The notes: generated by a model not told the origin, from the letters alone. Positions 20,026 to 63,388 are shown, numbered from the stretch's first letter. The stretch: 64,000 nt of DNA from an uncultured Muribaculaceae bacterium (GCA_964491535.1 CAZBGR010000002.1:3440-67439); one strand, 5' to 3'. Numbers and translations: made by a program.

Positions 20026-20154
20026 TACTTTTCCTCCTCGCCTATATCAGGTATAGACTCGCTCCGTGCAAATTACCTGTTTGACTAGATTTCGTATAAC
20101 AACGCAACCTAGTGTATCAGCAACCTTGTACCTCAAAACAGTCACACGTAAATG

Positions 20155-20195: not shown

Positions 20196-20260
20196 ATAAA
20201 TATTAAAAAAGTTCTCTTTTTATAACTTTACTAATGAAAAATAAAGAAAAAGAGAACTTA
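20196..20260 (-). terminator. Rho-independent terminator downstream of the 20302..21591 surface-protein gene
   Basis: Minus-strand hairpin AAGTTCTCTTTTT ...loop... AAAAAGAGAACTT followed by TTTTTTAATATTT. Confidence 0.6.
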
Positions 20261-20301
20261 ATTACTATATCTCATTCTCTTTTGATTAATCTTATTTCTT
20301 T

Positions 20302-21591
20302 TTACTTTTTTAACTTAATTACTAAACAAATGCTTATTAATGATAACAATCCTCCTAGCGAACCAATAATTATTATAAGTTGATGCTGATAAATTGTTTT
20401 TTCAGCTAATGATAAACAATGTTGATGGTAACGTTGTAAAGTTCGTTCATGACTATCATATAAATAAAAGCCTTCTTCACCACTTTCTATATTAATCCCA
20501 TATAATAAATAAAAATCTTGATCATCGGTAGTTGATAATTGCCAACCTTTTATCTTTTTATCATCCCTTGAAAAAGTAACCCTTTTAAAATTAGGTGGTA
20601 TTTTTACATCAGCCTCAGGTTCAAATAAATAAAGAACAACATTACCTGATAAAAACTCATTATAAATAGTATATTTTTCGTTATCAGCATCATAGACATA
20701 TAAATAATTATTACCCACTTTATCCTTTACCCCAACTAATACTAAACCAGTAGCTTCATTAGTATAAGCAGCTACTTCTTTCCCTAAGATTGAAATAGTA
20801 GACATTGAAAAATTATCAGGAGGTTCTATAACCCCACTTGTTTTAATAATTTGATATGTTTTACCTTTAATATCAATTTCTATTGGATCTAAATCTATAA
20901 TATTAACTACTATCGTATAGGTTTTAGGATTACCATTTTCAGCAGTTACTTTAATATCAAACTTATTAGAACCTTCACTAACTTTTAAAAGCCCATCACC
21001 AATAATAGTCGCTTTAGAATCAGCGCTTTTCGCTAAAATAGTAATTTCAGTAAGTAATTCATTAATATCAACTGTATAAGATGTTTCATCAGCCTTAAAA
21101 ATAGGATCTAGTTCATAATCTAAGACTGAAAGACTAGTTAAATCATTATTAGAAGATAGCGTAGACGCTACTGATTCAACAACATTAATAGTACATCCTG
21201 AAGTAGTTAAACCCATCTCATTTACTTCAAAATCAATAAGGGAAGCATCTTTAACTGAGACTGTAGTCTTACCTAAAGCAAGAGTTTTAAAAGTATAAGT
21301 ATAGGAAATTGATTTTCTAGAACCATCCCCATAACCTACAATAAAAGTAGCATTATTAGTACTGGTAAGTTTTAACTTACTTTTATCATAATTAACTACA
21401 AACTCCCAAGCTCCAATTATTACTGGGCTAGAAACAGTAACTGTTACCGTAACAGAGCTCCCAATAACTACCGTTGTTTTAGACGCTCTAGCGTTTATCG
21501 TTCCACTAGCGGCCTTTATTTGAAGCGGGACTATACTCACTAATAACCCAACTAAACTTAGCCCTATTATTTGTTTTAATATTCTCATCAT
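20302..21591 (-). CDS. Cell-surface protein: signal peptide, cohesin-like domain, cadherin-like beta-sandwich domain, C-terminal TM anchor
   Basis: N-terminal signal peptide MMRILKQIIGLSLVGLLVSIVPLQIKAASG. Cohesin hallmark pattern SKTTVVIGSSVTVTVTVSSPVIIGAWEFVVNYDKSKLKLTS (GxxVxVxV...FVxxYDxxxLxL). DLTSLSVLDYELDPIFKADETSYTV is cadherin-like. C-terminal hydrophobic helix plus KLKK. Confidence 0.5.
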   Translation of the reverse strand: MMRILKQIIGLSLVGLLVSIVPLQIKAASGTINARASKTTVVIGSSVTVTVTVSSPVIIGAWEFVVNYDKSKLKLTSTNNATFIVGYGDGSRKSISYTYTFKTLALGKTTVSVKDASLIDFEVNEMGLTTSGCTINVVESVASTLSSNNDLTSLSVLDYELDPIFKADETSYTVDINELLTEITILAKSADSKATIIGDGLLKVSEGSNKFDIKVTAENGNPKTYTIVVNIIDLDPIEIDIKGKTYQIIKTSGVIEPPDNFSMSTISILGKEVAAYTNEATGLVLVGVKDKVGNNYLYVYDADNEKYTIYNEFLSGNVVLYLFEPEADVKIPPNFKRVTFSRDDKKIKGWQLSTTDDQDFYLLYGINIESGEEGFYLYDSHERTLQRYHQHCLSLAEKTIYQHQLIIIIGSLGGLLSLISICLVIKLKK

Positions 21592-21597
21592 AACCTC

Positions 21598-23634
21598 CTA
21601 TTGTCTAATAGCATCTATTCCTAAAAGATGACGTTGAATCATTAATAAATCCTTAATCGTAATTTGCCCATCTCGATCAACATCAGCTGCTTTTTCATAA
21701 ACACCAGTTAAATTAACAACCTTTAATAAATGACGTTGGACCATTAATAAATCTTTGATAGTAACTTGATCTTCTCCTTTAACATTACCATAAATTAAAA
21801 TAGTAAATTGATGATTTTCATTATTACTAACAATAGCAATTTTATCTCCAGTAGTAATATTGCCACTTGTTTTAGGTTCATTAGTAGGGGTTAAAGTTTC
21901 AATTGTGGCAAATTGATTAACCTGATTAATCTTACTAATAAACTTATCAACACTAGTATTTAAAGGAATGCCACTTAATAAGTTGTTATTAATATTCCAT
22001 TTTAAACTACCAACAATATCATTAACCGTAATAGGAATATCATCCCTTTTTATAATCGTAATCTTATAAGTTAACTTTGTTCCATTTTCAGCTTCAATTA
22101 TAATATCATTAATGTTTTTCTCTTTATTTAAAACAATATTGCCAACCCCGGATAAAATACGAGCTTTAGAACTTGCTTTAACTGCCTCAATATTAATATT
22201 ATTAAGTAAAGTTGGTACATAAAAAGTATAATTTAAAGTATCTCGATTAAAAGCTGCTAAAGGAATACCATTAATCTTAATCGAATTTAAATAATTATTA
22301 GCATTACCTAATAAAGTTGGTAAACTAGTAACCACCGGCATATTATTATAAACAGGAACAATAAAAACTAATGGATTATCTAAAACGCCATAATTAAGAT
22401 AAGCATTATAGGTAATACTTGATTCTGATTTAGGAGCTTCAATATTAGTCATATATTGATGAGTATGTTTTGTATAATAAGCATTAGGGGCAACATTCCA
22501 TTTTTGTAAATATAAAGTATTTTGAGCGCGAGTAATATAAGCCCCACCTAAAAATTCGGCACCACCAACAATTGAAGTATATGGACTTTTCCATGGTCTA
22601 CCATAAGAAGTATCAGTTCCATTTTCTCCCCCATTAGCATAAACCAAACCCTTTTTCCAATTGTCTACCCCACTAGTAGCCCCAATGTTAAAAAAGTTAT
22701 ATAACCCACTGTATGTTTTACCATTATAAGAGAAAGAACCTCCAGTAACTGCTGCTGAACCACCACTACCCTGTTCTTGCCTAACTCGAGAAGCTAAATG
22801 AATAGGGCTAACCTTTTTTAAGCTAGCGGCTTCAATAAAAGTATCAGCATATGATTTGTTACTTCCATTATATGAGTAAGAATTAGCCATAAAAGTACCA
22901 TTTAAAACTCGTTGTACTACTGTCTTAGTTTGATAAGCACTTTGGTAATTTAAAGCTTCAAACATTAAAACATTAGTTAAAGTTAAAAAGTTTCTTGGGT
23001 CCATATGATAAGCTACCACATCAGGATGAGCTGCATACCAACTCGTACCATCTAAAGGAATCCAAGTATCAGTACCTACATTATAAGCTCCCGCTTCAGT
23101 CGAACGATAAGCTACATCACGATTATAATAAATTAAACTTTTCCCCACCACGCTTTGAGCATTTATTACATCATTCCAATTTAAACCAGTATGTTGAGCT
23201 ATAAAAACCCAATTTGGATATATAGCATGCAATTCCTTTAATTTAGACCAATAACTTGATGGAAAAGCTTGATCAATTAAATAGCTTTCAAAATCAGAAT
23301 CATCCGTAAGTTCATAAGTAATAGTCGATATATAATCACTTCTCATATAACCTTTATAATTAATACTATCATAATTAAAATCAAGGTGATACCATGGAAT
23401 ACCTTCATTATCATTTTTTGAACCTAATATTGAAACTTTATGTCCTGCTCCAAGTAACACTTGATTATTAATATTGATATTTGGATAATTAGTCCCAGGA
23501 CCAGTTCTAACATTAACACGATTATTATTAACTATTGAAATAGTAACTGTTTCTGCTTTAACAATTAAATGGCAAAAAGAAGAAATAAATAAGCTTATTA
23601 ACAATAAACTTAAGCTCTTAATAACTAATTTCAT
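21598..23634 (-). CDS. Secreted peptidoglycan hydrolase (glucosaminidase/muramidase-like) with SH3b, cadherin-like domain and C-terminal dockerin-like module
   Basis: Start re-set to ATG 23632-23634 (GGAGGT RBS), giving signal peptide MKLVIKSLSLLLISLFISSFCHLIVKA. SH3b motif VNVRTGPGTNYP. Hydrolase-like core with LASRVRQEQG. Two C-terminal dockerin repeats: GNVKGEDQVTIKDLLMVQRHLL and DVDRDGQITIKDLLMIQRHLLG. Confidence 0.6.
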   Translation of the reverse strand: MKLVIKSLSLLLISLFISSFCHLIVKAETVTISIVNNNRVNVRTGPGTNYPNININNQVLLGAGHKVSILGSKNDNEGIPWYHLDFNYDSINYKGYMRSDYISTITYELTDDSDFESYLIDQAFPSSYWSKLKELHAIYPNWVFIAQHTGLNWNDVINAQSVVGKSLIYYNRDVAYRSTEAGAYNVGTDTWIPLDGTSWYAAHPDVVAYHMDPRNFLTLTNVLMFEALNYQSAYQTKTVVQRVLNGTFMANSYSYNGSNKSYADTFIEAASLKKVSPIHLASRVRQEQGSGGSAAVTGGSFSYNGKTYSGLYNFFNIGATSGVDNWKKGLVYANGGENGTDTSYGRPWKSPYTSIVGGAEFLGGAYITRAQNTLYLQKWNVAPNAYYTKHTHQYMTNIEAPKSESSITYNAYLNYGVLDNPLVFIVPVYNNMPVVTSLPTLLGNANNYLNSIKINGIPLAAFNRDTLNYTFYVPTLLNNINIEAVKASSKARILSGVGNIVLNKEKNINDIIIEAENGTKLTYKITIIKRDDIPITVNDIVGSLKWNINNNLLSGIPLNTSVDKFISKINQVNQFATIETLTPTNEPKTSGNITTGDKIAIVSNNENHQFTILIYGNVKGEDQVTIKDLLMVQRHLLKVVNLTGVYEKAADVDRDGQITIKDLLMIQRHLLGIDAIRQ

Positions 23635-23989
23635 AATCAACCTCCACTTCGTTAATGCTATAAATAGTATATCAATTAACAGAAAAGCGAACAAGACTAA
23701 TCGTTTAAATTTGACATTAGAAGATGTAAAGCCAATCATCGTTTTTACAATTTAATATCCTTTTTGGCTTTGTTTTTTAATTAATTTTATAAATTATCTT
23801 CAAGATTATTCTTTTTAATTATATATATACCTATTTTATATCATAATTTTTAGTTGATTTTTAAATCGTTTTTCATCAAGATATTAAAATAATTTTATTA
23901 ATTATAATTTCAAACTAAAATTATTTTCGCAAAAATTATTTACGAAAACCATTTTTTAGACTATAATTGATAAAAGAAAGGATTACAAC

Positions 23990-26131
23990 ATGAAAAAAAC
24001 AATTCTCCTTTATCGACGATCCCCCTTTAAATTACGTTTGTTAACAATTTTATTATTACTTGTTTATCTTGGTAGCAGTCTTTATCTTTGTTTCAGTCTT
24101 CTTTTATTTAGTAATATTGAAACTATATTAAGAATTATAATTATTTTTATAATTAGCTCACTTACTATATTCCTTATTATAAAAAGCTATCGATTACTAT
24201 TTAAATTGAAAAATAAATTGAAAATAATGTTAATCTTTATTTTTTTGTTAATTATTATCCAATCTTTAAGTGCTTTTACCATTAATAAAGTTTATTCTAC
24301 TTTAGTCAATATAAATAAATCACAAATTACCTATACTACTAATTTAATAACTTTAATAGATAATGACATAAACAATATTAATGACGTGAAAAAGAAAAAA
24401 ATAGCTTTAATTAATGACGAAGATAACATTGAAGGTTTTATCATCAGTCAGGAATTAATTAAGCGTTATAAATTAAATAAAAACAATGATATCGTTTTAT
24501 ACGAAAGCTTTATTCAAATGCTAACAGATCTGTATAATCAATCAATTGATGCCGTTTTTATTTCTGGTAATTATATAACTATGTTTTCATCAATTGAATC
24601 TTTTGAAAATATTAAAGATGAAACTAAAATTATTATTAGTCAATCAAAAAAAGTAACCAAAGATAATAAAAAAAAGGCAATAAAAAAATTAACTGAACCA
24701 TTTACCTTTTTAATAATGGGAGTAGATTCTACTAAAGATGATATTAATAGCGGATCTGCTTTTAATGGTGATGCCTTAATGTTAATTACTTTTAATCCCA
24801 AAACATTAAATACTACTATTTTAAGTATCCCACGAGATACCTATGTCCCAATAATGTGTTTTAAAAATAATCTTAAAAATAAAATTACTCATGCTGCTTG
24901 GCACGGAGAAGATTGCATGATTAAAACCATCGAAAACTTTACTAGTATTAAAATTGATTATTATATAAAAATTAACTTTAAAGGCGTAGTCGATCTAGTT
25001 AATGCTTTAGGAGGAATAAAAATAGATGTCCCAATCACCTTTTGTGAACAAAATAGCAAACGCCAATGGGATGATCAAACAATTTATTTAAAAGCGGGCC
25101 AACAAACTATAAATGGTGAAGAAGCTTTAGCTTTAGCTAGACATCGTAAAGATTTAAAAATATGTGGAAAATATTATGTCAATAATAAAATGAACGATTT
25201 AAAACGAGGTTTAAATCAACAATTAGTTTTAAGTGCTATCTTAAACGAAACCAAAAAAATAAATAACATTAATAAAGTTTATACTTTGTTAGATATCATG
25301 GAAAAAACAATTGATACTAATTTAGAAACTAATCAAATTTTAAACTTTTATAATGTAAGTAAAGATCTTATTAAACATAATAAGAAAATAAAAAATAATG
25401 ATATTTTATTTTTAGAAAGATTATATTTAAACGGCTATGATCAATATATATATGATGCTAGTTTTAACAAATCATTATATAATTATGTTTACTATCAAGA
25501 TAGTTTAGAAGCGATTATTAAAGCCATGAAAATAAATTTAGAAATAGAAAATCCTATTTTAATTAAAAACTTCTCTTTTTCAATCAATGAACCTTATCAA
25601 CAATCTATAATTGGCCAAGATATTTACAGTAAAAAAACTATTCAAGTAATTCCTAATTTTACTGTTAAAACTAAACAAGAAGCAATTGATTGGGGAATAA
25701 ACAATAAAATTAAAATAACTTTTAAAAGTATCGATTCAACAGATGATGAGTATCAACAAAATCAAATAATTTATCAAAATATTCCAACCCATACTTTATT
25801 AAATCAGCTTAATAATAACGAAATTATCCTAACTATTATTAATAAAACAACTCCTAAAATAGAAAAAATTAATTGTAACGAACCTGAAAACGAATTAAAA
25901 GATGTTTGTTTAATGCCAAATTTTATAGATAATTCAATAAGCGAAGTTGATAAATGGTTAAATAACATATTCTTTAATTTTATTGTAACTAAAACAAAAG
26001 AAATCACTATTGATCCTTTAAAAAACGGAATCATATTTGAACAATCAATAAAGCCCCAAACCAAAGTATCAAATATCGGAGCAGAATTAATTATTAAATA
26101 TTATCTATTAGAAGAAATAGAAGAAGAATAA
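23990..26131 (+). CDS. LytR-CpsA-Psr (LCP) family cell-envelope phosphotransferase with a long C-terminal extension
   Basis: N-terminal TM; LCP core GDALMLITFNPKTLNTTILSIPRDTYV ... NFKGVVDLVNALGGIKIDVP ... INGEEALALARHRKD. AAAGGA RBS 8 nt upstream. 713 aa, of which ~300 C-terminal aa are unassigned. Confidence 0.75.
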   Translation: MKKTILLYRRSPFKLRLLTILLLLVYLGSSLYLCFSLLLFSNIETILRIIIIFIISSLTIFLIIKSYRLLFKLKNKLKIMLIFIFLLIIIQSLSAFTINKVYSTLVNINKSQITYTTNLITLIDNDINNINDVKKKKIALINDEDNIEGFIISQELIKRYKLNKNNDIVLYESFIQMLTDLYNQSIDAVFISGNYITMFSSIESFENIKDETKIIISQSKKVTKDNKKKAIKKLTEPFTFLIMGVDSTKDDINSGSAFNGDALMLITFNPKTLNTTILSIPRDTYVPIMCFKNNLKNKITHAAWHGEDCMIKTIENFTSIKIDYYIKINFKGVVDLVNALGGIKIDVPITFCEQNSKRQWDDQTIYLKAGQQTINGEEALALARHRKDLKICGKYYVNNKMNDLKRGLNQQLVLSAILNETKKINNINKVYTLLDIMEKTIDTNLETNQILNFYNVSKDLIKHNKKIKNNDILFLERLYLNGYDQYIYDASFNKSLYNYVYYQDSLEAIIKAMKINLEIENPILIKNFSFSINEPYQQSIIGQDIYSKKTIQVIPNFTVKTKQEAIDWGINNKIKITFKSIDSTDDEYQQNQIIYQNIPTHTLLNQLNNNEIILTIINKTTPKIEKINCNEPENELKDVCLMPNFIDNSISEVDKWLNNIFFNFIVTKTKEITIDPLKNGIIFEQSIKPQTKVSNIGAELIIKYYLLEEIEEE

Positions 26132-53792: not shown

Positions 53793-55865
53793 TTAATCAT
53801 CATCACTAAAAAAGTCGTCAAAGAAAGCATCATCTGAAATACCTTTATCTACCTTATCATTAATAATTTTATCAAGATCAGCATTTATTTTAATTACTTC
53901 TTCTTTTGGTTTCTGATCAACTTTATTCACTGGAGGTTTCTCTTCTTTCTTTTCAACCACTGGTTTTTTAGGCTTTTCTACTATCCCTTTTTCTTCAGCT
54001 TCTAATTCAGCTATTTTAGTATCTATTTTTTTAATTAATTCATCAACGTTAAAAGATGAAGGAACATCTTTCTTTCCAAATAAAGAATTAGAAGATGGTA
54101 AAGGTGGGGTTGGTACAAAAGGTCTATCTTCACCTAACATATTAAACAAACTATTTTTTTTCTTTTCTTTAACGAAAGCTCTAATATCAAAAAGAGCGAT
54201 TGGTTTAGTAATTCGTTCTGGATAGTTAGGTTTAGCGCCCTTTTTATCACCATAACTATATTCAAACATTGGTAATAATTTAACTTTAAAAGGCCAACAA
54301 CGATCCTTTAATATAATAGCATCTTTAAATTTCAATCGTTGTAAATCACTAACCGTAATTAAAGGCCTAATTTGTTCTTTACCATCTTTACTCTTATCTT
54401 TTTCTTTAACTTCACCAGCTAGTTTACTTAACTCTTCTAAGGCTGATAATTCCTTAGTAATTAAATAAATAACATTCGCACAATTACCTTTTATTGTTTC
54501 TGCATTTTCCTTGCCATAAACTTGAGTTAATTGAGCATAATTTTGAATAATTAAATTAAAACGAATTAAACGAGATCGAGCAGCCGTAATCATTGTTGTT
54601 ACATCCCTTAAGGGTGGCATATTAGCAAATTCATCTAAAATAAAATTAGTTCTAATTGGTAATTTACCCCCATGAGCATGAGCAACATCAATTAAAATTT
54701 CATAACATTGTTTAACAAAAACAGTCGCTAAAGCATGATAAGTTTTCTTTTCATCTTGAATAATAATAAAAACAGCTGTCTTTTGCTTCCCAATATCACT
54801 CACTTCAAAATCACTATAAGATAACATTTCTGATAAGTGTTCTGTTAAAGCAAAAATCTTAATTTTTTGCCTAAACACTGATAAAATACTATCCCTTGTT
54901 TGATCAGGAGCATTAATCGCACTAGCAGCATTAATATAAACTGGTTTAGATGGATCTTTGTCCATAAAGTATTGCTTAATATAAGAAGCACTACCATACC
55001 TTTCTTCCCCAACAGATGTCATATAACTAATTGAATTTAAATTGATTTCATCTTCTTTAGCATCAGCAAATAACCCTAAAGCACAGGCCACAAAATAATC
55101 AGCTGAGGTGCTTTCCCAAAAGGGATCATCTTTACTTTTTTCATCATGGATTAAATTAAAGGCTAAATCATTTAACAATTCATTAGCTTTATCTGAACCT
55201 TGTTTATATAATTTATAAGGTAATATTAACGGATTCCATGCATTACCTTTTTCAGGATTACGAAGATTAATCAACACAATATTATAACCCTTTTCTAATA
55301 GCATACTCGCTGTTTCTTCGTATAACTCACCTTTAGGATCAGTTAAAATCATCGATTCACCTTTTTTAGCTAAAATCTTAATCAATGGTTTAACAACTAT
55401 TTCGGTTTTACCACTACCGGTAGACCCAATAATTAAGGAATGTGACTCGCCGTCATCTACCCATACTTCATTAGGTTCAGTAATTAAAGGTACCCCTGCA
55501 TATTCAAAAACGGGATCTAAAGGTCTTACTTTTTTCAAAACCTTTTTCATCTCTTCCTTTTTAGCCCATCTTGAATACCCACCCTTTTCTTTCTTACCTC
55601 TACTAATACCAATACCTTCTTCACGATCAAAAAAATATGAAGAAACAGCAGTTAAAATAGCTATAAAAGCAAAAAGATAAAAAACAATAGTAGCTGATAA
55701 AAACTCAGGAGTAAAAGCAGGTAATGGATTAAAACCATGGAATTCTTGAACCCGAGTTAAAGAAGCAGCATTTAAAACGCCTATTGATACTAAATAAAGT
55801 AAAAAAAAGGCAAAGACAAAAAAATACATGATATCTTTAGCTTCAGCTTTAAATTTAAGCTTCAT
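53793..55865 (-). CDS. Type IV secretion coupling protein (VirD4/TraG/TcpA family)
   Basis: Two N-terminal TM helices, Walker A GSTGSGKTE, TraG/TraD family core, and an acidic C-terminal tail DDAFFDDFFSDDD. GAGGTGA RBS. Confidence 0.85.
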   Translation of the reverse strand: MKLKFKAEAKDIMYFFVFAFFLLYLVSIGVLNAASLTRVQEFHGFNPLPAFTPEFLSATIVFYLFAFIAILTAVSSYFFDREEGIGISRGKKEKGGYSRWAKKEEMKKVLKKVRPLDPVFEYAGVPLITEPNEVWVDDGESHSLIIGSTGSGKTEIVVKPLIKILAKKGESMILTDPKGELYEETASMLLEKGYNIVLINLRNPEKGNAWNPLILPYKLYKQGSDKANELLNDLAFNLIHDEKSKDDPFWESTSADYFVACALGLFADAKEDEINLNSISYMTSVGEERYGSASYIKQYFMDKDPSKPVYINAASAINAPDQTRDSILSVFRQKIKIFALTEHLSEMLSYSDFEVSDIGKQKTAVFIIIQDEKKTYHALATVFVKQCYEILIDVAHAHGGKLPIRTNFILDEFANMPPLRDVTTMITAARSRLIRFNLIIQNYAQLTQVYGKENAETIKGNCANVIYLITKELSALEELSKLAGEVKEKDKSKDGKEQIRPLITVSDLQRLKFKDAIILKDRCWPFKVKLLPMFEYSYGDKKGAKPNYPERITKPIALFDIRAFVKEKKKNSLFNMLGEDRPFVPTPPLPSSNSLFGKKDVPSSFNVDELIKKIDTKIAELEAEEKGIVEKPKKPVVEKKEEKPPVNKVDQKPKEEVIKINADLDKIINDKVDKGISDDAFFDDFFSDDD

Positions 55866-55968
55866 TAATAATCACCTCAATATAAATAACATCTAATTAA
55901 ATTATAGCATAAAAAAGCATGATTTAGTAAAAAGCCACTTTAATAATCAGTTCAATCCATTCAATATT

Positions 55969-56661
55969 TTATATTTGATTATTTTGCTGCTCTTTATTTT
56001 TAATAAATATTACAAATATTACTATACCTATCCCAAGTATAATAATTAAAATAACTGAATAACTAATTTTGATTTCTTCATTAATGTTTATAAAATTGTT
56101 TTGCTTTGTTTTATCAAATGATATTATAATTTCCTTTTCTTCTGTATTTTTATTAGTGTTCCATATATAATCATTATTCTTTACTTCATCAGCATTATGT
56201 TCAACCACTTTGAAAATAGAATTAATTGTAATTTTAGCATTATTTATGGCTGGACGCTCTGGATCATCTTCATTGTATAAATAAAAATTTGAAGCTTTCA
56301 AAGTTATTATCTTACCATGTTCATCATAATTAATTTTTTCAAATAAATACTTTGCAGCATCCGTATTATCTTTATAATCTTGAATTGATAAAAACGTTCT
56401 TGATATTAATACTCCCCCCATTTCATTGTTATCTATCATTTCATATACATATAAACTTTTATCCGTTTCTTCAAAATAAGGTTCAAAAATAAAACCTATT
56501 ACCTCACTTTTATCGCTAAATTTATACATATTAAAGAAAGCATTTGTTTCCGTAGCTTTAATTTGTTCTTCAACCACTAAATCCTTGTTAATAATCAAAT
56601 TATATTCCACTGAACAGCCAGTAAAAATAATCAAAACTAAAAATAAAATAATTTTCCGCAT
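55969..56661 (-). CDS. Lipoprotein with C-terminal TM anchor (T4SS-associated, possibly VirB8/TcpC-like)
   Basis: Start re-set to the internal ATG (AAGGAGGT RBS) giving MRKIILFLVLIIFTGC lipobox; the upstream ORF-track extension overlaps the preceding gene. Coordinate accuracy is within a few nt. Confidence 0.55.
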   Translation of the reverse strand: MRKIILFLVLIIFTGCSVEYNLIINKDLVVEEQIKATETNAFFNMYKFSDKSEVIGFIFEPYFEETDKSLYVYEMIDNNEMGGVLISRTFLSIQDYKDNTDAAKYLFEKINYDEHGKIITLKASNFYLYNEDDPERPAINNAKITINSIFKVVEHNADEVKNNDYIWNTNKNTEEKEIIISFDKTKQNNFININEEIKISYSVILIIILGIGIVIFVIFIKNKEQQNNQI

Positions 56662-56692
56662 AAAAACCTCCTTATTTTTATTTTTTTGAAAA

Positions 56693-58330
56693 TTATTTAG
56701 AAATAATCCAAAAAGGTGTATTGTTAGTAGCTTTAGTCTGTCTAACAATAAGTTCAAAATCCCACTCCTTACATCTCTTTTCCACTTTAGGATCGGCAAC
56801 TAAAACTTGGCCTGAAGATGTTACCCCTCTTAATACAATATAATGCCCACCCTTAGTAAAATCTCCCGGCCCCATATGGGCAACAACTAAACTACCTTGA
56901 GATAATGCATTAATAATTCTCTGCAAATCTGAATTAGTTCTACTTACAGCTATTGATTTTAATCCATAATATTCAGGAGCAGCTATCATCATACTTCCAT
57001 AAGAGCCATTAGAAGTACAATAAGCAGGGCAAAATTTATCTACTATATTTATAGGTGTAACTTCCTTTCCAAGTAATGATGATATTACTATCGCTAATGA
57101 AGTTGGCCCACACCCCCATCTACTAATATTTCCTCTTCCAGAAGGATAAATATAAGGATAATTTGCCCATCTTGGATCATCTTGATTAAAATACATTACA
57201 TCTATAACTCCATCTGTAAAAATTACATTTATATAATATTGGCCACCACTATAACCATCACTTTTATTCATTAAATAAGCAAAAGCATCTCTTTGATCAA
57301 ATATTTCATCAATTTGGCGATTAAAAACAATCTCTTGTTCTTCTTTGCTTTTAGTAATTATATGTTCATTATAAGATTGGCGTGGTAAATAATTATCCCT
57401 TAAATAGTCTTTATAACGATTATAATTCATAAACTTAACCATTACAGGAAAAGCTATTTCTCCTTCTGAACAATTACTAACAAGGTATGATTGGGTCATT
57501 ATTCTGTAAATGTTTTCTAACAAATCTTCATCATATATTGTAGATAACTGTTTTGTAAAATAACTTTGACCTTCTTGGTTATATGCATATATTAATCTAA
57601 TTAAGTGTAATACATTGTTATATTTTATAACATCTTTAATGGTATCTTCAACTGTATAACCTAAATGGAGGGCAAAATCATTAAACAAATCCTTAGCCGC
57701 TTTACTTAATTCACTATATTCACCAGGTTGATCTGAAAAGAAACCAAAAAAGTCTTTAAATTTACCAAACGCTCCCTGCGAAAAACCTACGCACCTAGAT
57801 TCAAACCTAGTATCAACAAGATGACCTAATAATCCTTGCTGAGAACGTATTAAAGTATAGGCACTACCCAGTTCATCTACAGCTACTACATAAAAGTTTC
57901 TAATTTGCGATGTTTCTACAACATAATCATTATCATCAAATGTATATTCTTCTTCACTAACATTTTCATCATCATATCCCTCAGGATTAATATAATTAAA
58001 ATAATGAACCGTAGCAGATAATAGGGGGATATCCAATTCCCCCATGTCATGAGAAAAATCCCTATATCTTACATATTCTTCATCTAATTTTAGAAAGAAA
58101 ACCTCTTCTGATTTCTTAAAACCTTCACCTATAGTAAAATTAATAAATTTATCTAAACCCGTTCCTACCGCCTCAATTATATCTGATAAATACATAAACG
58201 GTACCATTATTAAAATTATAATTAATATCACTAAGGCAACTTTAGCAGCAATTACCGCTATAGCTGAAATGATAGGCCATGATTTAACTATTGTATGTAT
58301 CATCTTAGCTTTTTCAATAATTTTATTCAC
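56693..58330 (-). CDS. Membrane-anchored cell-wall hydrolase with C-terminal peptidase_C39-like (papain-fold) domain, analogue of TraG/CwlT/TcpG
   Basis: N-terminal TM; C-terminal WGCGPTSLAIVISSL...GGHYIVLRG Cys/His pattern. GTG start with AAAGGAGTGA RBS. Confidence 0.6.
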   Translation of the reverse strand: MNKIIEKAKMIHTIVKSWPIISAIAVIAAKVALVILIIILIMVPFMYLSDIIEAVGTGLDKFINFTIGEGFKKSEEVFFLKLDEEYVRYRDFSHDMGELDIPLLSATVHYFNYINPEGYDDENVSEEEYTFDDNDYVVETSQIRNFYVVAVDELGSAYTLIRSQQGLLGHLVDTRFESRCVGFSQGAFGKFKDFFGFFSDQPGEYSELSKAAKDLFNDFALHLGYTVEDTIKDVIKYNNVLHLIRLIYAYNQEGQSYFTKQLSTIYDEDLLENIYRIMTQSYLVSNCSEGEIAFPVMVKFMNYNRYKDYLRDNYLPRQSYNEHIITKSKEEQEIVFNRQIDEIFDQRDAFAYLMNKSDGYSGGQYYINVIFTDGVIDVMYFNQDDPRWANYPYIYPSGRGNISRWGCGPTSLAIVISSLLGKEVTPINIVDKFCPAYCTSNGSYGSMMIAAPEYYGLKSIAVSRTNSDLQRIINALSQGSLVVAHMGPGDFTKGGHYIVLRGVTSSGQVLVADPKVEKRCKEWDFELIVRQTKATNNTPFWIISK

Positions 58331-58353
58331 GGTATCACTCCTTTACATAGATG

Positions 58354-60138
58354 TTATAAGCCGCCACCACTACCAAATGATTCTAATTCTTCTTCTGTTA
58401 CCACTACATTTATTCTCATTCGCCTACTACCGCAAACAAACAAAGCCTCCCCTTGTCCATAACGCTTAATACTTTCCTTTTCATTATCATTTAAATCAAT
58501 TAACATCGACAAATCTTCAACTGCTTGTTTTTTTAAACCCATTACCATATAATAAGAAGCATTATCAAAGATAGCTTTACCTTGAGTAATAACATGCGGA
58601 TCAATAAAGTCACTAGGTTGTTGAGTAATAATAATTGTCCCCGTGTTATATTTCCTTGCCCTTCTTTGAACTTGAGCTAAAAATTCAGCCCCTAAAGTAT
58701 TATTGCTACCTAATAATACGTGAGCCTCATCAACTGATAAAACAGTATTAACTGATTTATCTAAACATAAACCCCAGGCATATTTTAAAATATTAAAAAA
58801 TAAAGCATTTCTAATATTAGTATCAGCATTCATTATTTCCCTTATATTAAAAACAATAAATTCTTTGTTCCCACTAATTGTCGTATGACCATCAAAATAA
58901 TACTTAAGTTCCTTAGTTAGAGGCCTTATTTTTAATTCTAAACGTTCCATAATATCTCGTTCATGTGTTTTTTCTTGATACTGCGCTAAACGACCTCTAA
59001 TGGTAGCATAAACATCTTTAAAAGTAGGGTAATCGGTTGTTTTAAAATTACTAAAATCAGTGTTAAAATCAATCCCAAAACGTTTATATGTATCTTGCAC
59101 TACTTCACTAAACAATGTTAAAACATCTTCTTCAATACCAGGATCGTAATACTTCATAAAAGCTTTTAAAAATTGAAGTGTTTTAGTTAAAATAGTATAA
59201 CCTAAACCTTGTTCTAATTCATCTTCATCAGCATCAATAATTATTTCTAAGGGATTAATCATTCCAAATTCGCCACCCTTACCTAAATCAATAAAATTAC
59301 CTCCATACATCCTAGTCATTTCATCAATTTCACCCTCGGGATCAATAACTACTATTTGATACCCATTACGAATATGACTTCTTAACATTAATTTAGCTAC
59401 TGTTGATTTTCCACTACCAGAAGCCCCTAAAATAACTAAATTAGCATTATGACGATTGTGTTCCTTTTTTATTTGAAATAAAAATTGATTAAAAAGAATA
59501 ACACCACCAGAAAAGTCAACCCCTAATAAAGTTGCTAAACCAGCATCCTTAATGCTATCAAAAATAAAAGGATACATAGCAGCCATTGAAATAGAAGGAA
59601 TCGCTGTTCCAATTCTATTTTCAACATCTTGTTTTGGAAAAATAGGTAACATTGATTTTAAAACCTTTTCTTGTTCAAAACGCAAAGGTATTGCCCTTAA
59701 ATCCATAGCAATTAAATAATTTTTGACATTTACTTTTTTTAATTCTAATTCTTCTCTAGTATCAGCTGTAATCATAATATGCATTTGAAAATCAAAAATC
59801 CTGGCTTGAGAAGAAGCTAACATTGAAATAAAATATTCTAATGATTCAACATCTAATCTAATTCGTTCTTGCATTGTTTTATCACGTTCTTCTTGATATT
59901 TAGCTTTTAAATCTACTATTTGCTTATTTATCATTTTTGATAAGTTACCAAAAGGAATAGGAATATGTTTAATAACAACCTTTATTCCCGACATAGTTGT
60001 TAAATTAGATAAAAAACCAACCGATACTGTTTTCGGATAAGAAATAACTGTTAATAAGGTCGAATACTTATCACTAATAACAAAATCATTGGCAAAAAAC
60101 TGCATTCCCTTAGGAGCAATTTGTGTTTTTATATTCAT
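58354..60138 (-). CDS. Type IV secretion ATPase VirB4 (TraE/TcpF/PrgJ-like)
   Basis: Walker A LGASGSGKST, Walker B LSVDEAHVLL, AAA_10/DUF87-like architecture; overlaps the upstream gene by 4 nt. Confidence 0.85.
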   Translation of the reverse strand: MNIKTQIAPKGMQFFANDFVISDKYSTLLTVISYPKTVSVGFLSNLTTMSGIKVVIKHIPIPFGNLSKMINKQIVDLKAKYQEERDKTMQERIRLDVESLEYFISMLASSQARIFDFQMHIMITADTREELELKKVNVKNYLIAMDLRAIPLRFEQEKVLKSMLPIFPKQDVENRIGTAIPSISMAAMYPFIFDSIKDAGLATLLGVDFSGGVILFNQFLFQIKKEHNRHNANLVILGASGSGKSTVAKLMLRSHIRNGYQIVVIDPEGEIDEMTRMYGGNFIDLGKGGEFGMINPLEIIIDADEDELEQGLGYTILTKTLQFLKAFMKYYDPGIEEDVLTLFSEVVQDTYKRFGIDFNTDFSNFKTTDYPTFKDVYATIRGRLAQYQEKTHERDIMERLELKIRPLTKELKYYFDGHTTISGNKEFIVFNIREIMNADTNIRNALFFNILKYAWGLCLDKSVNTVLSVDEAHVLLGSNNTLGAEFLAQVQRRARKYNTGTIIITQQPSDFIDPHVITQGKAIFDNASYYMVMGLKKQAVEDLSMLIDLNDNEKESIKRYGQGEALFVCGSRRMRINVVVTEEELESFGSGGGL

Positions 60139-60689
60139 AAAGGCATCACCGTCCCAAACTCTACCGACATTCCCCCACCCAAGAAATTATCAAGAATAAT
60201 TCTTAAATCCTCATTACTTGTTTGAGTAGCATTTAAACCACAGCCTGCCATCCCATTAATCAAGGATCTAATCTTTTTTTGAATAATTTCAGGGTCCTTA
60301 TCCTTAAACAAAATATAATATTCAGTATCAACCACATTATTAGCCATAAACATATTAGCTTTATTAATATCCTCAGTTATCAATTTTCTAAGTTGTGTCC
60401 CTTGAACGTTATTATATAAGAGTTGTAATTGAGATAAATAAAGATTAATATCAACCGGACGATCGGCTACTATTACCCAAAATTCATAATCAATCATATT
60501 GTAAAAATTACGAAGACCTCCAATAACATTCATTTGCGAATCCTCATCTAAAATAAATATATTTCGAGGACTAACTTTGATTCCAGTTACTTTAGTGTTA
60601 TCATCTAAAATTATCATCCCATTAGTTATATTTTTAACTGGTACCCAATCCTCAGTATATTTACTTTTTGGCCTCTTCTTGGTATTCAT
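60135..60689 (-). CDS. T4SS-associated hypothetical protein (184 aa)
   Basis: Translationally coupled to virB4 (ATGA overlap); no recognisable motif. Confidence 0.4.
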   Translation of the reverse strand: MNTKKRPKSKYTEDWVPVKNITNGMIILDDNTKVTGIKVSPRNIFILDEDSQMNVIGGLRNFYNMIDYEFWVIVADRPVDINLYLSQLQLLYNNVQGTQLRKLITEDINKANMFMANNVVDTEYYILFKDKDPEIIQKKIRSLINGMAGCGLNATQTSNEDLRIILDNFLGGGMSVEFGTVMPL

Positions 60690-60987
60690 TAATACACCAT
60701 CCTTTCCATATATAAAGTCTTCTTTCTGTTAAAAACTTTAAACCAGATTTAATAACTGTTAATACATTATGATAATTAGGAATCGGCAAAACTAAAAACC
60801 CAGCCAATAACCCCGGTCCTAAAATAATAACCGTTTTCAACAAATTATCAGTTGACAATGTAAATAACAATATTAAAGTTATAGAAACCCCTACCGCCAA
60901 TAATATTAAGTCATTAATCATAAAAACATTAAAAATTAAAGCCCCTCTTTTAGTATTAGCTGGTATCAAATAAGTATTTTTATTCAT
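60661..60987 (-). CDS. Small two-TM protein, TcpE/VirB3-like
   Basis: 108 aa with two hydrophobic helices; position immediately upstream of VirB4. Confidence 0.4.
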   Translation of the reverse strand: MNKNTYLIPANTKRGALIFNVFMINDLILLAVGVSITLILLFTLSTDNLLKTVIILGPGLLAGFLVLPIPNYHNVLTVIKSGLKFLTERRLYIWKGWCINEYQEEAKK

Positions 60988-60993
60988 TCACTA

Positions 60994-61485
60994 TCACCTT
61001 TCCTTTTTATTATTAATGATTTCCAATAACATTTGGTTTTCTTCATATTGTTTTATCAAATTATATTTTTCACAATCATCTGGACAAATATTTTTTACTT
61101 TTTCAAATTCCTTTTCTATACAATCTAAAGCCTCTTTAACTTTTTCATATTCATTTTTAACCCTTAAATAATAATCCTTTAACGAAATTACTATACCCTT
61201 TTGATGATCAATTATAAAGTTTTTGTTTTCATCAAGAAGAACCTCATTATTAGTATTTATAGTTACCATTGCGTTAGGATGGTTAGCAAACCATATGTTA
61301 ACAATTTTAAATTGATTTTCTATACTCTCAAAATAAATTTTAATTAATTCTGCCCTTTCATAAACTTTACTAAAAAGATTAGAAAAAACAGCATATTTAC
61401 TTCCCCTTTTATTTATTTCTATTAATAACTTTTTAAGTCTTTTTTGTTGATGTTTTAATAAATGTTGATATTGACTTGGATTCAT
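60994..61485 (-). CDS. T4SS-associated hypothetical cytoplasmic protein (163 aa)
   Basis: No recognisable motif; sits in the conjugation cluster. Confidence 0.35.
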   Translation of the reverse strand: MNPSQYQHLLKHQQKRLKKLLIEINKRGSKYAVFSNLFSKVYERAELIKIYFESIENQFKIVNIWFANHPNAMVTINTNNEVLLDENKNFIIDHQKGIVISLKDYYLRVKNEYEKVKEALDCIEKEFEKVKNICPDDCEKYNLIKQYEENQMLLEIINNKKER

Positions 61486-61588
61486 GCTTTATTTCCTTTC
61501 ATTAATTGAATGTATCTAAATTTTAATGAAATATATAAATAATTTAAAAGTTTTGAATTCCATCATTTAGTCAAATTTACTGTTATAC

Positions 61589-63388
61589 TCATACTACCCC
61601 ACCCCAATCTCCCGTTGTTTTAGTAGATGACGATGAAGAAGTTGCAGCACCAGCAGCTTTAGTTACTTTTTCTGCATCTTCCCTAGCCCTAATAAGATCA
61701 TACATTTCTCCATCTTTTTTATGTGCCTTTTTAACAGTAGTAAAGCGTTCTTCAGCTGTTTTGGCACTACCTTCTAATTTTTTGAATTTTATCAATTCTT
61801 CCGTATATTTATCTTCACTAAGGCTTCCTGTTCTAAATTTATTTTCTGTAACAGCAAAATCATTAGAAGCATATTTTAATTGTTCTTTAAGAGCTTGATA
61901 ATTTCTGTTTGCATTTATAAAACTAGCAGAATCATAAGCGTTTTGTTCGGCATTAATTTTAGCCATAGCTTGTCCCATGCTATCCTCACCCCTATTTTCT
62001 GCATCTTTTTCTGCAGTAAACATTTGCTTCCATATGTCATTAGTAGCCTTTTCATCATCTTTTTGTTGTTTAAGATAGGCTCCCCTTTGGGCTTCTGCTT
62101 GCCATTTATCCGCTGTTCTTCCCAATCCCCATCGATACCCTTCCCCTTTTATTCCTTTACCAACATCACCTACTGTTTTAAATGGAGATGTTAAAGCAGC
62201 TTTACCTTGCCCTAAAACATTGCCTTTAGCACCCCAAACCCCTCCAGCTCCAGACTTTATTCCGGACCAAGCTCCACCTAAAATACTTTTACTTCCACCT
62301 TCAATGCCACCTGTTATTCCCCCAGCTATACCACCTAATGCCGTAGCTGCGCCACCTAAAGCTAAACCTGTACCAAAACTGGCCGCTCCTTTTAAGGCCT
62401 TACCTAAAGTTCCAAAGCCCATATCTTCAACCCCAAATAAATCAGCAATCATCTTTGGAACATCTTTTGCAAATAATAATAACCCCACAATTACTAAAAT
62501 CTTAAGAAAGAAACCCTCTTCTTTCAAATTTACAAATTCTTCTTGAATTACATCAAATGCAAAAACCATAAATGCTATTGCTGCCATCCTTAAAAATAAC
62601 AATACATAAGTATCAACGCTAAGTTTTTGCCATTTGCTAAAAAATCCCGACTCCGATGATTTTGGATCAATATAAGACATAACAGCTATTGGAGCTATCA
62701 TTTGTAAAAAGGCTAGTTTTACAGTCCTAACAGCTATATCCAAACTATAAACCAGTAACATTATTAAAACAAAACCGCCTGCTGCTAAGGAAAATATCCA
62801 TAAATATTCGTATTTAAAATCATCACCCATCCTAATTTTATCATTTAAAACCTCTTGCATAGCAGAAAGGTTTGTTATGTCCTCTAGTAATTCATTTAAT
62901 TCGTTTTCACAATAGGACGGAGCATCTTTATTGCACTTTAAAAAAGATGATAAGGTTTCTTTTCCTATCTCCTGCCCTGCAGAAATATTAGTTTCGTTAG
63001 TTCCCATAAAAATTCTCATAAAAATATTTCTCTTGCCTTCAGGATCAATAAGAACCCTTTGAATTCGAAACCCATAACTAAATATAAAAGGAATTAATAC
63101 TATCAAAGCAAGTGCAATCATCGACCTTTGAATAATCTTGCCAAACCCCTGATTTTGATCGGTTAACAAATCTGGATTTACAACCGTCGTAATTAAACTA
63201 AAAGCCAATCTAAACAACATAAATAACGCTAATAAGGCATATATATTTTTAGCAAAACCATCGATTTTACCTTCAAAAAGGTCTAATACTGACACTTTTA
63301 CAATTAAATCATATATCCTTGGAATCATTCCGTATATCAAACGATCCAAAGCAAAAAAGATAGTTCGAAGGACACTTACAAAAAACAT
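61589..63388 (-). CDS. VirB6/TrbL-like polytopic membrane protein with glycine-rich and coiled C-terminal region
   Basis: N-terminal half has multiple TM helices; C-terminal GKALKGAASFGTGLALGGAATALGG... Gly-rich tract, then a charged tail. Confidence 0.55.
   Translation of the reverse strand: MFFVSVLRTIFFALDRLIYGMIPRIYDLIVKVSVLDLFEGKIDGFAKNIYALLALFMLFRLAFSLITTVVNPDLLTDQNQGFGKIIQRSMIALALIVLIPFIFSYGFRIQRVLIDPEGKRNIFMRIFMGTNETNISAGQEIGKETLSSFLKCNKDAPSYCENELNELLEDITNLSAMQEVLNDKIRMGDDFKYEYLWIFSLAAGGFVLIMLLVYSLDIAVRTVKLAFLQMIAPIAVMSYIDPKSSESGFFSKWQKLSVDTYVLLFLRMAAIAFMVFAFDVIQEEFVNLKEEGFFLKILVIVGLLLFAKDVPKMIADLFGVEDMGFGTLGKALKGAASFGTGLALGGAATALGGIAGGITGGIEGGSKSILGGAWSGIKSGAGGVWGAKGNVLGQGKAALTSPFKTVGDVGKGIKGEGYRWGLGRTADKWQAEAQRGAYLKQQKDDEKATNDIWKQMFTAEKDAENRGEDSMGQAMAKINAEQNAYDSASFINANRNYQALKEQLKYASNDFAVTENKFRTGSLSEDKYTEELIKFKKLEGSAKTAEERFTTVKKAHKKDGEMYDLIRAREDAEKVTKAAGAATSSSSSTKTTGDWGGVV

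Follow-up and report, generated by a model that had tools for sequence, protein, structure and literature searches.

The stretch of DNA analyzed here, referred to as the window, comprises 64,000 nucleotides (nt) recorded under the name of an uncultured Muribaculaceae bacterium (GCA_964491535.1, CAZBGR010000002.1:3440-67439) and is AT-rich, with a GC content of 22-33%. It contains a cassette of two adjacent genes on the minus strand, the first of which (21598-23634) is predicted to code for a secreted peptidoglycan hydrolase that ends in a dockerin, and the second (20302-21591) for a membrane anchor that begins with a cohesin-like domain. An initial annotation of the sequence had interpreted the two products as a surface-display module in which the hydrolase is tethered to the cell through a cohesin-dockerin contact, and computation, as far as it goes, supports this interpretation. 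All features of the two genes described below are located on the minus strand.

The longest open reading frame (ORF) of the hydrolase gene extends from 21598 to 23739 and codes for 713 amino acids. A start at the ATG at 23634 is favored because this codon has a properly spaced GGAGG before it (GAAGTGGAGGTTGATT), whereas no ribosome-binding site was found ahead of the upstream ATG. The likely product is a protein of 678 amino acids followed by the stop codon TAG, and does not include the 35 N-terminal residues encoded at 23635-23739. The initial annotation had correctly described the secreted form of 678 residues, but its end coordinate of 23739 was placed 105 nt too far. Residues 1-27 (23554-23634) have the n-h-c layout of a signal peptide, which would be cleaved at ...IVKA/ET. 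Residues 1-28 represent the sole hydrophobic segment of the hydrolase, and a release of this protein from the membrane is predicted.

The signal peptide is followed by an SH3b domain at residues 39-103 (23326-23520), for which the Pfam model SH3_3 gives 25.5-25.7 bits against a cut-off of 27. The same model is matched by 33 of the 45 orthologues (best 2e-25), and the profile of the hydrolase family identifies the SH3 structures 2kt8, 2krs and 2kq8 from C. perfringens. The catalytic module covers approximately residues 120-430 (22345-23277) and was recognized with phmmer, the family profile and NCBIfam. In the single-sequence phmmer search, Atl (6fxo) was matched at 2e-9, along with SagB (6fxp) and AtlE (4pi7), while the profile of 45 orthologues matched SagB at 7.8e-29 (6u0o_B, profile positions 152-416) and 1.7e-28 (6fxp), Atl at 4.6e-27 (6fxo), AtlE at 6.7e-24 (4pi7) and 5wqw at 1.2e-21, in addition to Acp and many dockerins. 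The SagB model in NCBIfam was matched with an E-value of 9.6e-13, at 47.9 bits compared to a cut-off of 425. All 45 sequences share the catalytic Glu287 in the motif RVRQEQG (22768-22788), which aligns to SHALLETG of Atl. Likewise, conservation is at least 90% for Q393, Y394 and N397, with HQYMTN aligned to HQYATD. With both the Glu of the E-x-G motif and the YxT(D/N) segment retained, the core is by sequence a member of the GH73 N-acetylglucosaminidase family, which gives a name to what the initial annotation had called a glycoside-hydrolase-like core.

The catalytic module is followed by a Cadherin-like beta-sandwich at residues 449-529 (22048-22290; PF12733, 23.9-24.0 bits, cut-off 24.2), which is 37% identical over 110 amino acids to residues 137-243 of the anchor (E 1e-7) and hence paralogous to a domain in its presumed partner. 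Residues 530-612 (21799-22047), located just before the dockerin, gave a weak match to PBP5_C alone (E 0.007). The SH3b and Cadherin-like domains of the initial annotation were thus recovered, both near their cut-offs. In the Pfam profile searches that it had recommended, Dockerin_1 scored above its gathering score, but Cohesin, SH3_3 and the Cadherin-like domain of the hydrolase fell just below theirs, and no match to Glucosaminidase was listed up to E = 1, the latter indicating that the GH73 domain is divergent.

The C-terminal residues 613-678 of the hydrolase (21601-21798) correspond to a type I dockerin, as identified from matches to both Pfam and PDB. The Dockerin_1 model (PF00404) was matched at 40.5 bits over its positions 4-57 of 57, well above the gathering score of 22.9, and is also found in 45/45 orthologues (best 4.4e-16); the PDB dockerins 2ccl_B, 1ohz_B and 2yik, from C. 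thermocellum, were also matched. Two tandem repeats had been suggested initially, and both can be recognized. Repeat 2 (21619-21684) consists of DVDRDGQITIKD followed by LLMIQRHLLG and has the canonical calcium loop D-V-D-R-D-G-Q-I-T-I-K-D, whereas the calcium loop of repeat 1 (21721-21789) is degenerate. The two helices of the dockerin are nearly identical, TIKDLLMVQRHLL and TIKDLLMIQRHLL, with the shared pattern TIKDLLM(V/I)QRHLL. They resemble in this respect the type I dockerins with a dual binding mode, which in the classical representatives is based on the symmetry of the helices.

The anchor protein, here 429 amino acids long, also starts with a predicted signal peptide (residues 1-27, 21511-21591, ...QIKA/AS), with residues 2-29 being hydrophobic and the A-A-S after it conserved in the family alignment. 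A compact cohesin module (residues 28-140, 21172-21510), identified from profile and fold matches, is followed by a Cadherin-like beta-sandwich that may serve as a spacer (residues 146-232, 20896-21156). The latter exceeds the cut-off of PF12733 (30.4 bits compared to 24.2) and is found in 40/40 relatives of the anchor. The protein ends with a predicted transmembrane helix at residues 405-425 (20317-20379), within a hydrophobic segment spanning residues 403-428 (Kyte-Doolittle maximum 2.58), and a Lys-rich tail that would be cytoplasmic. The signal peptide, the Cadherin-like domain and the C-terminal membrane anchor had all been noted in the initial annotation. An additional domain, here called D3, is located next to the membrane at residues 234-392 (20416-20892). 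This all-beta domain of about 160 amino acids is predicted to be extracellular, is conserved in the family and yields a confidently folded model with no solved relative. At 90% identity, the anchor family falls into more than 319 clusters, with 143 confirmed matches in genomes, and all members share the same layout: a signal peptide, an N-terminal domain of about 113 amino acids, a Cadherin-like domain, D3, one transmembrane helix and a tail rich in K, E and R.

The end of the anchor gene differs from that of a near-identical contig (L001, P0001), in which the protein is 443 amino acids long and continues with ...KLKKVKRNKINQKRMRYSN, such that the stop codon would fall at positions 20258-20260 of the window. 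Compared to this contig, the window has a 1-nt deletion beside a run of A (AAGTT-AAAAAAG, within 20258-20320), and the anchor ends with ...KLKK after the loss of 14 tail residues. The longer basic tail is retained in the relatives of the anchor, and the loss in the window may represent either a real truncation or a homopolymer error in the assembly.

The evidence that the first domain of the anchor is a cohesin comes from several types of searches. When a profile of this domain was compared to PDB, the top 22 matches were all cohesins (best 3.9e-5), including those of NagJ from C. perfringens and Amy4 from R. bromii (9qf3), and cohesins were the only proteins matched down to an E-value of about 0.25. 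A search with the same profile against 1.84 billion representative sequences identified 3,534 proteins at E-values of at most 1e-3; the top 150 included scaffoldins with 7, 10 and 11 Pfam cohesins (E ~1e-27), of which the protein with 10 cohesins also contains CBM3 and a dockerin. In an hhalign comparison with ten scaffoldin cohesins, the probability was 96.4% (E 1e-9), with the alignment covering the first 51 columns only. The AlphaFold2 model of the domain obtained a mean local confidence score (pLDDT) of 93.5 and a predicted template modeling score (pTM) of 0.83, and shows the nine-stranded flattened beta-sandwich, or jelly-roll, that is typical of the cohesin fold. A Foldseek search with this model placed cohesins in all of the top 16 positions (E 1e-6 to 3e-5), and did not point to the generic immunoglobulin-like fold that the initial annotation had considered as an argument against its own suggestion. 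Taken together, sequence profiles and the structural model identify the domain as a genuine but miniaturized cohesin, the shape of which is nearest to that of non-cellulosomal cohesins.

The two genes are closely linked. The anchor starts 6 nt past the TAG of the hydrolase in the same frame, and the AGGAGG of the anchor overlaps this stop codon at the gene junction (21592-21603, TAGGAGGTTATGATG). This is the layout expected for translational coupling, and the pair is from its sequence considered to be translationally coupled. The two ORFs, being in one frame, are parted by TAG GAG GTT (21592-21600), such that the dockerin would become fused to the signal peptide of the anchor if the TAG were read through; there is no evidence for such read-through.

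A search for related loci in genomes with 8 anchor sequences identified 80 species loci and further metagenome contigs. Directly upstream of the anchor, a GH73 orthologue with two dockerin repeats is present at every one of these loci that has a readable upstream gene, in surroundings that otherwise differ, with a gap of -11 to +25 nt between the hydrolase and the anchor genes in the relatives. In three distant relatives with differing neighborhoods, Dockerin_1 was likewise found in the gene upstream of the anchor. Hidden Markov models (HMMs) built from the two families identified exactly one dockerin and one cohesin at each locus (about ±5 kb), and also in the whole 64-kb window. A second Cadherin-like protein, distantly related to the anchor (E 5e-18), is encoded 7 kb upstream of the cassette at one of the loci (L004:1-1228, plus strand), and this protein had no match to the cohesin or D3 HMMs.

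Several observations weigh against a functional contact between the two modules. The Pfam Cohesin model (PF00963) scores 22.7 bits (E 1.2e-4), which is marginally under the gathering score of 24.1, although 10 of 40 family members match the model at E<0.01 (best 9.2e-8). The sequence likeness to cohesins is limited to the first ~50 residues. Moreover, the domain is only 113 amino acids long compared to ~140-156 for solved cohesins and is thus ~25-35 residues shorter, for which reason its dockerin-binding face may differ. In repeat 1 of the dockerin, the helix and D12 are kept but the loop reads N-V-K-G-E-D (N1, K3, E5, D6) rather than D-x-[NSD]-x-D-G. This loop is canonical in 83 of 84 relatives, and the degenerate form is the window's own among the 84 orthologues. 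An independent sister species (L087), the anchor of which is 76% identical, has the same degenerate loop, GNIKGEDQ, which argues that it is a fixed trait of the lineage rather than a sequencing error, and one calcium site has probably been lost in the lineage of the window and this sister species. Finally, mutual information with average product correction, calculated for 84 pairs (effective number of sequences, Neff, 47), gave a top value of 0.31 (z 5.7) for dockerin and cohesin, as compared to 0.33 for dockerin and Cadherin-like domain and 0.32 for dockerin and D3. Phylogeny dominates these values, making the covariation result uninformative.

We also considered the possibility that the two modules do not bind to each other, with the N-terminal domain of the anchor being a cohesin-derived beta-sandwich that has taken on another role, for example as an adhesin or a stalk, and the dockerin binding to some other partner or only stabilizing the enzyme with calcium. 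Such an explanation would fit with the Pfam score being below the threshold, the module being small, the first loop being degenerate and covariation giving no signal. However, the adjacency and translational coupling of the genes are strictly conserved in about 80 species, where each locus has exactly one dockerin and one cohesin, cohesins dominate the sequence and fold searches alike, and the family HMM identified no other cohesin candidate within the 64-kb window. We consider it distinctly improbable that the modules lack affinity for each other, and likely that the hydrolase docks onto the anchor.

The docking of the hydrolase onto the anchor can be envisioned as follows. Both products would be exported through the Sec pathway, after which their fates would differ, in line with the contrast in hydrophobicity between the hydrolase, in which the N-terminal segment alone is hydrophobic, and the anchor, which has both a signal peptide and a C-terminal transmembrane helix. 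This helix would hold the anchor in the membrane, the basic tail of the anchor being on the inner side and its three beta domains facing outward, such that D3 is located at the membrane, the Cadherin-like spacer next to it and the compact cohesin at the tip. After removal of its signal peptide, the hydrolase would use the type I dockerin at its C-terminus to plug into the cohesin of the anchor in a calcium-dependent manner. The GH73 enzyme and the SH3b domain, which may bind to the wall, would thereby be kept on a multi-domain leash at the interface between the membrane and the wall. There, the enzyme would most likely cut the GlcNAc-beta-1,4-MurNAc bonds in the wall of the producing cell, serving in the trimming of glycan strands, in wall turnover or in the separation of daughter cells, in functional analogy with the membrane-held SagB of S. 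aureus. Considered as a whole, we find it probable that the cassette is a cohesin-dockerin surface-display unit that holds a GH73 hydrolase for work on the cell's own wall.

The question of which wall is the substrate is best discussed in the light of the organisms that carry the cassette. These are metagenome-assembled genomes (MAGs) labelled as Bacilli, 'Tenericutes', Mycoplasmatota, Clostridium sp. CAG:594, CAG:609 and CAG:762, Candidatus (Ca.) Aphodocola and Ca. Onthousia, obtained from human, rabbit, goat, chicken and rumen samples; one of them is a circular MAG of 1.52 Mb (OZ006970.1). Ca. Aphodocola, represented by locus L025, corresponds to the GTDB genus CAG-594 of the order RF39 (PMC8035907). 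Judging from these relatives, we infer that the window comes from an RF39-type gut member of the Bacilli, the closest named relative being only 44% identical. The RF39 and their relatives are reduced-genome kin of the Mycoplasmatales, and the majority of RF39 species have, according to predictions, retained a peptidoglycan wall (PMC10868615). A loss of most penicillin-binding proteins and lytX/cwlX hydrolases is predicted for their common ancestor, the synthesis of peptidoglycan precursors is predicted to be incomplete, and scavenged muropeptides are possibly required (PMC10868615).

The possibility of such a need raises the alternative hypothesis that the same complex faces outward and degrades peptidoglycan debris or neighboring gut cells, thereby supplying amino sugars or muropeptides to a bacterium with a reduced genome. 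The relationship to RF39-type Bacilli (with Ca. Aphodocola among the relatives; PMC8035907) and the prediction that they may depend on scavenged muropeptides (PMC10868615) speak for this hypothesis. Furthermore, the combined length of the anchor and the hydrolase could perhaps span or even pass the wall, and a gene of the NAGPA family follows the pair at one locus (L002). On the other hand, the nearest characterized enzymes, SagB, Atl and AtlE, are autolysins with housekeeping functions, the cassette occurs as a single copy almost universally, which would fit a housekeeping role, and the predicted membrane anchor would hold the enzyme beneath or inside the wall of the producer itself. The conserved neighbor is also not a sugar transporter or a catabolic gene, but a wall-polymer ligase of the LytR-CpsA-Psr (LCP) family. 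In the window, this neighbor is the divergent upstream gene at 23990-26131 (plus strand), which codes for an LCP ligase of 713 amino acids with a C-terminal PASTA domain, and among the relatives an LCP gene is located at most 5 kb from the cassette in 58 of the 80 species loci. Together with the genes for LtaS-like and PASTA proteins in the window, this points to a housekeeping context in the cell envelope. We regard the scavenging role as unlikely, whereas a role in the cell's own wall is rather probable, provided that the docking architecture is correct.

Judging from the genes that surround the cassette, the window is chromosomal. Beyond the LCP-PASTA gene are genes for an LtaS-like sulfatase, an ABC exporter, BrkB and a GGDEF protein, and further along the window genes for DNA ligase, PcrA, PolIII-alpha, PFOR, ArgRS and RelA. 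The S10/spc ribosomal operon is located downstream of the cassette. Its adjacency, pointed out in the initial annotation, is real in the window but was rejected as meaningful, because S10 was found within 5 kb of the cassette in 0/80 genome loci and the linkage is confined to close relatives (L001, L006 and L087). Thus, the envelope context is conserved, while the ribosomal neighborhood is incidental.

The divergent intergenic region between the hydrolase and the LCP-PASTA gene (23635-23989) is presumed from its position to contain promoters, but promoter-like hexamers are not enriched there (18 observed, 25 expected). The terminator that the initial annotation had assigned to the pair is weak, and a consensus scan identified none after the anchor. 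A weak AU-rich hairpin with a U-run is present at 20228-20301 on the minus strand, ahead of the promoter and leader of the S10 operon, and could be a weak intrinsic terminator; its folding energy of -12.9 kcal/mol (z -1.5) was equaled in 18 of 200 shuffled sequences, and in the L001 version of the anchor, the hairpin overlaps with the 3' end of the coding sequence. Directly upstream of rpsJ, the sequence at 20032-20144 (minus strand) was matched by the S10-Clostridia ribosomal protein leader (RF03136), but with 25.9 bits (E 0.026) the match remained below the gathering score of 35.1. A promoter-like site, TTGCTT...TATAAT, is located before this leader.

At the other side of the window, a cluster of conjugation-type genes is located at 53793-63388 on the minus strand. 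It codes for a coupling protein of a type IV secretion system (T4SS-DNA_transf/TraG-D_C), a TraG/VirB4-like P-loop ATPase and a Peptidase_C39_2 protein of 545 amino acids, and may be an integrative conjugative element or a remnant of one. Yet another explanation for the cassette would be that it is a remnant of the lysis module of a phage or mobile element, to which these genes (53.8-63.4 kb) and a weak match between the GH73 core and the PHROG 'tail associated cell-wall hydrolase' (1.8e-10) could be taken to point. But no other phage genes are present in the surroundings, where the flanks consist of the S10 operon, LCP and LtaS, the anchor has no match in PHROG or PADLOC, and the cassette is chromosomal in at least 80 species with a divergence that looks vertical. 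A phage or defense origin was rejected on the grounds that there were no PADLOC matches and that PHROGs matched the GH73 core only, and the remnant explanation is in our view very improbable.

Cohesin-dockerin pairs with a similar cargo have been reported from other gut Firmicutes. According to one study, a lone dockerin and a lone cohesin occur in connection with a GH73 enzyme in Ruminococcus bicirculans (PMC4611034), and a GH73 enzyme with a dockerin is included in Table 3 of a study of R. albus strains (PMC4081043). These cases share with the window a GH73 cargo that carries a dockerin, in gut Firmicutes that are non-cellulolytic or poor in cohesins, and the presumed partner is again a lone cohesin. 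Mentioned in passing in these studies, however, they come from Clostridia (Oscillospiraceae), whereas the pair described here is a conserved operon across a clade of reduced-genome Bacilli, and has a transmembrane anchor with an extra domain. The amylosome of Ruminococcus bromii is an example of a gut Firmicute that uses cohesins and dockerins in a non-cellulosic function (PMC4611034), but there 26 dockerins and several scaffoldins serve a starch-degrading cargo, as compared to the 1:1 arrangement with a wall hydrolase in our case.

The non-cellulosomal pairs in C. perfringens include the cohesins of NagJ/GH84C (2w1n, 2jh2, 2o4e) and of the GH33 sialidase (2vo8). These modules are located on secreted enzymes and join the enzymes to one another rather than to a membrane anchor, and their cargo acts on host glycans, not on peptidoglycan. 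In the cellulosomes, anchors with one cohesin, such as OlpA and OlpC of C. thermocellum, are attached to the wall via SLH domains. Compared to OlpA/OlpC (3ul4, 4dh2) and the type I pair 1ohz, the anchor in the window has a C-terminal transmembrane helix and a cohesin of 113 amino acids instead of ~140-156, and compared to the anchoring proteins of cellulosomes in general, the cargo is a murein hydrolase rather than an enzyme acting on plant cell walls, and there is neither a scaffoldin nor any multiplicity. A cellulosome or scaffoldin system was accordingly rejected as a description of the cassette, given the single cohesin and single dockerin per locus and in the 64 kb, the absence of a CBM and the nature of the cargo.

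The closest functional parallel may instead be the SagB-SpdC complex of S. aureus (6u0o), in which a membrane protein positions its partner, a GH73 glucosaminidase that is the best match to the catalytic domain (7.8e-29), at the membrane, as is also proposed here. SagB has a transmembrane helix of its own and binds to a polytopic CAAX-like protein within the membrane. The enzyme described here would be soluble and held by an extracellular cohesin-dockerin contact, and the partners are not homologous. With a cleavable-looking N-terminal segment only and a single-pass partner with a cohesin, the pair is not a complex of the SagB-SpdC type, and the similarity is one of analogy only. Our literature search returned no paper that joins RF39 with dockerins, and no functional description of a peptidoglycan hydrolase with a dockerin.

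One tentative hypothesis, which we consider possible but doubtful in its full extent, is that the cassette is the principal, clade-defining machine for peptidoglycan processing in the RF39-type gut Bacilli, adopted after most lytX/cwlX autolysins had been lost. The stalk with its mini-cohesin might then set the distance of the SagB-like enzyme from the membrane, while D3 and the cytoplasmic tail might couple the enzyme to wall synthesis or cell division, or allow the harvest of muropeptides.

Cohesin-dockerin pairs are textbook components of the cellulosome, and the roles of these modules outside the degradation of plant fibers are mostly unknown, with many of them regarded as 'orphans'. If true, the operonic, lineage-wide 1:1 pair with a wall hydrolase as cargo would represent a clean case of the module being used in the housekeeping of the cell envelope. 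The cohesin of 113 residues may also be of interest for protein engineering, and D3 is a confidently folded domain still in search of a solved relative. For the RF39, in which the biology of the wall is known from gene inventories only, the hydrolase would be a candidate for the main autolysin.

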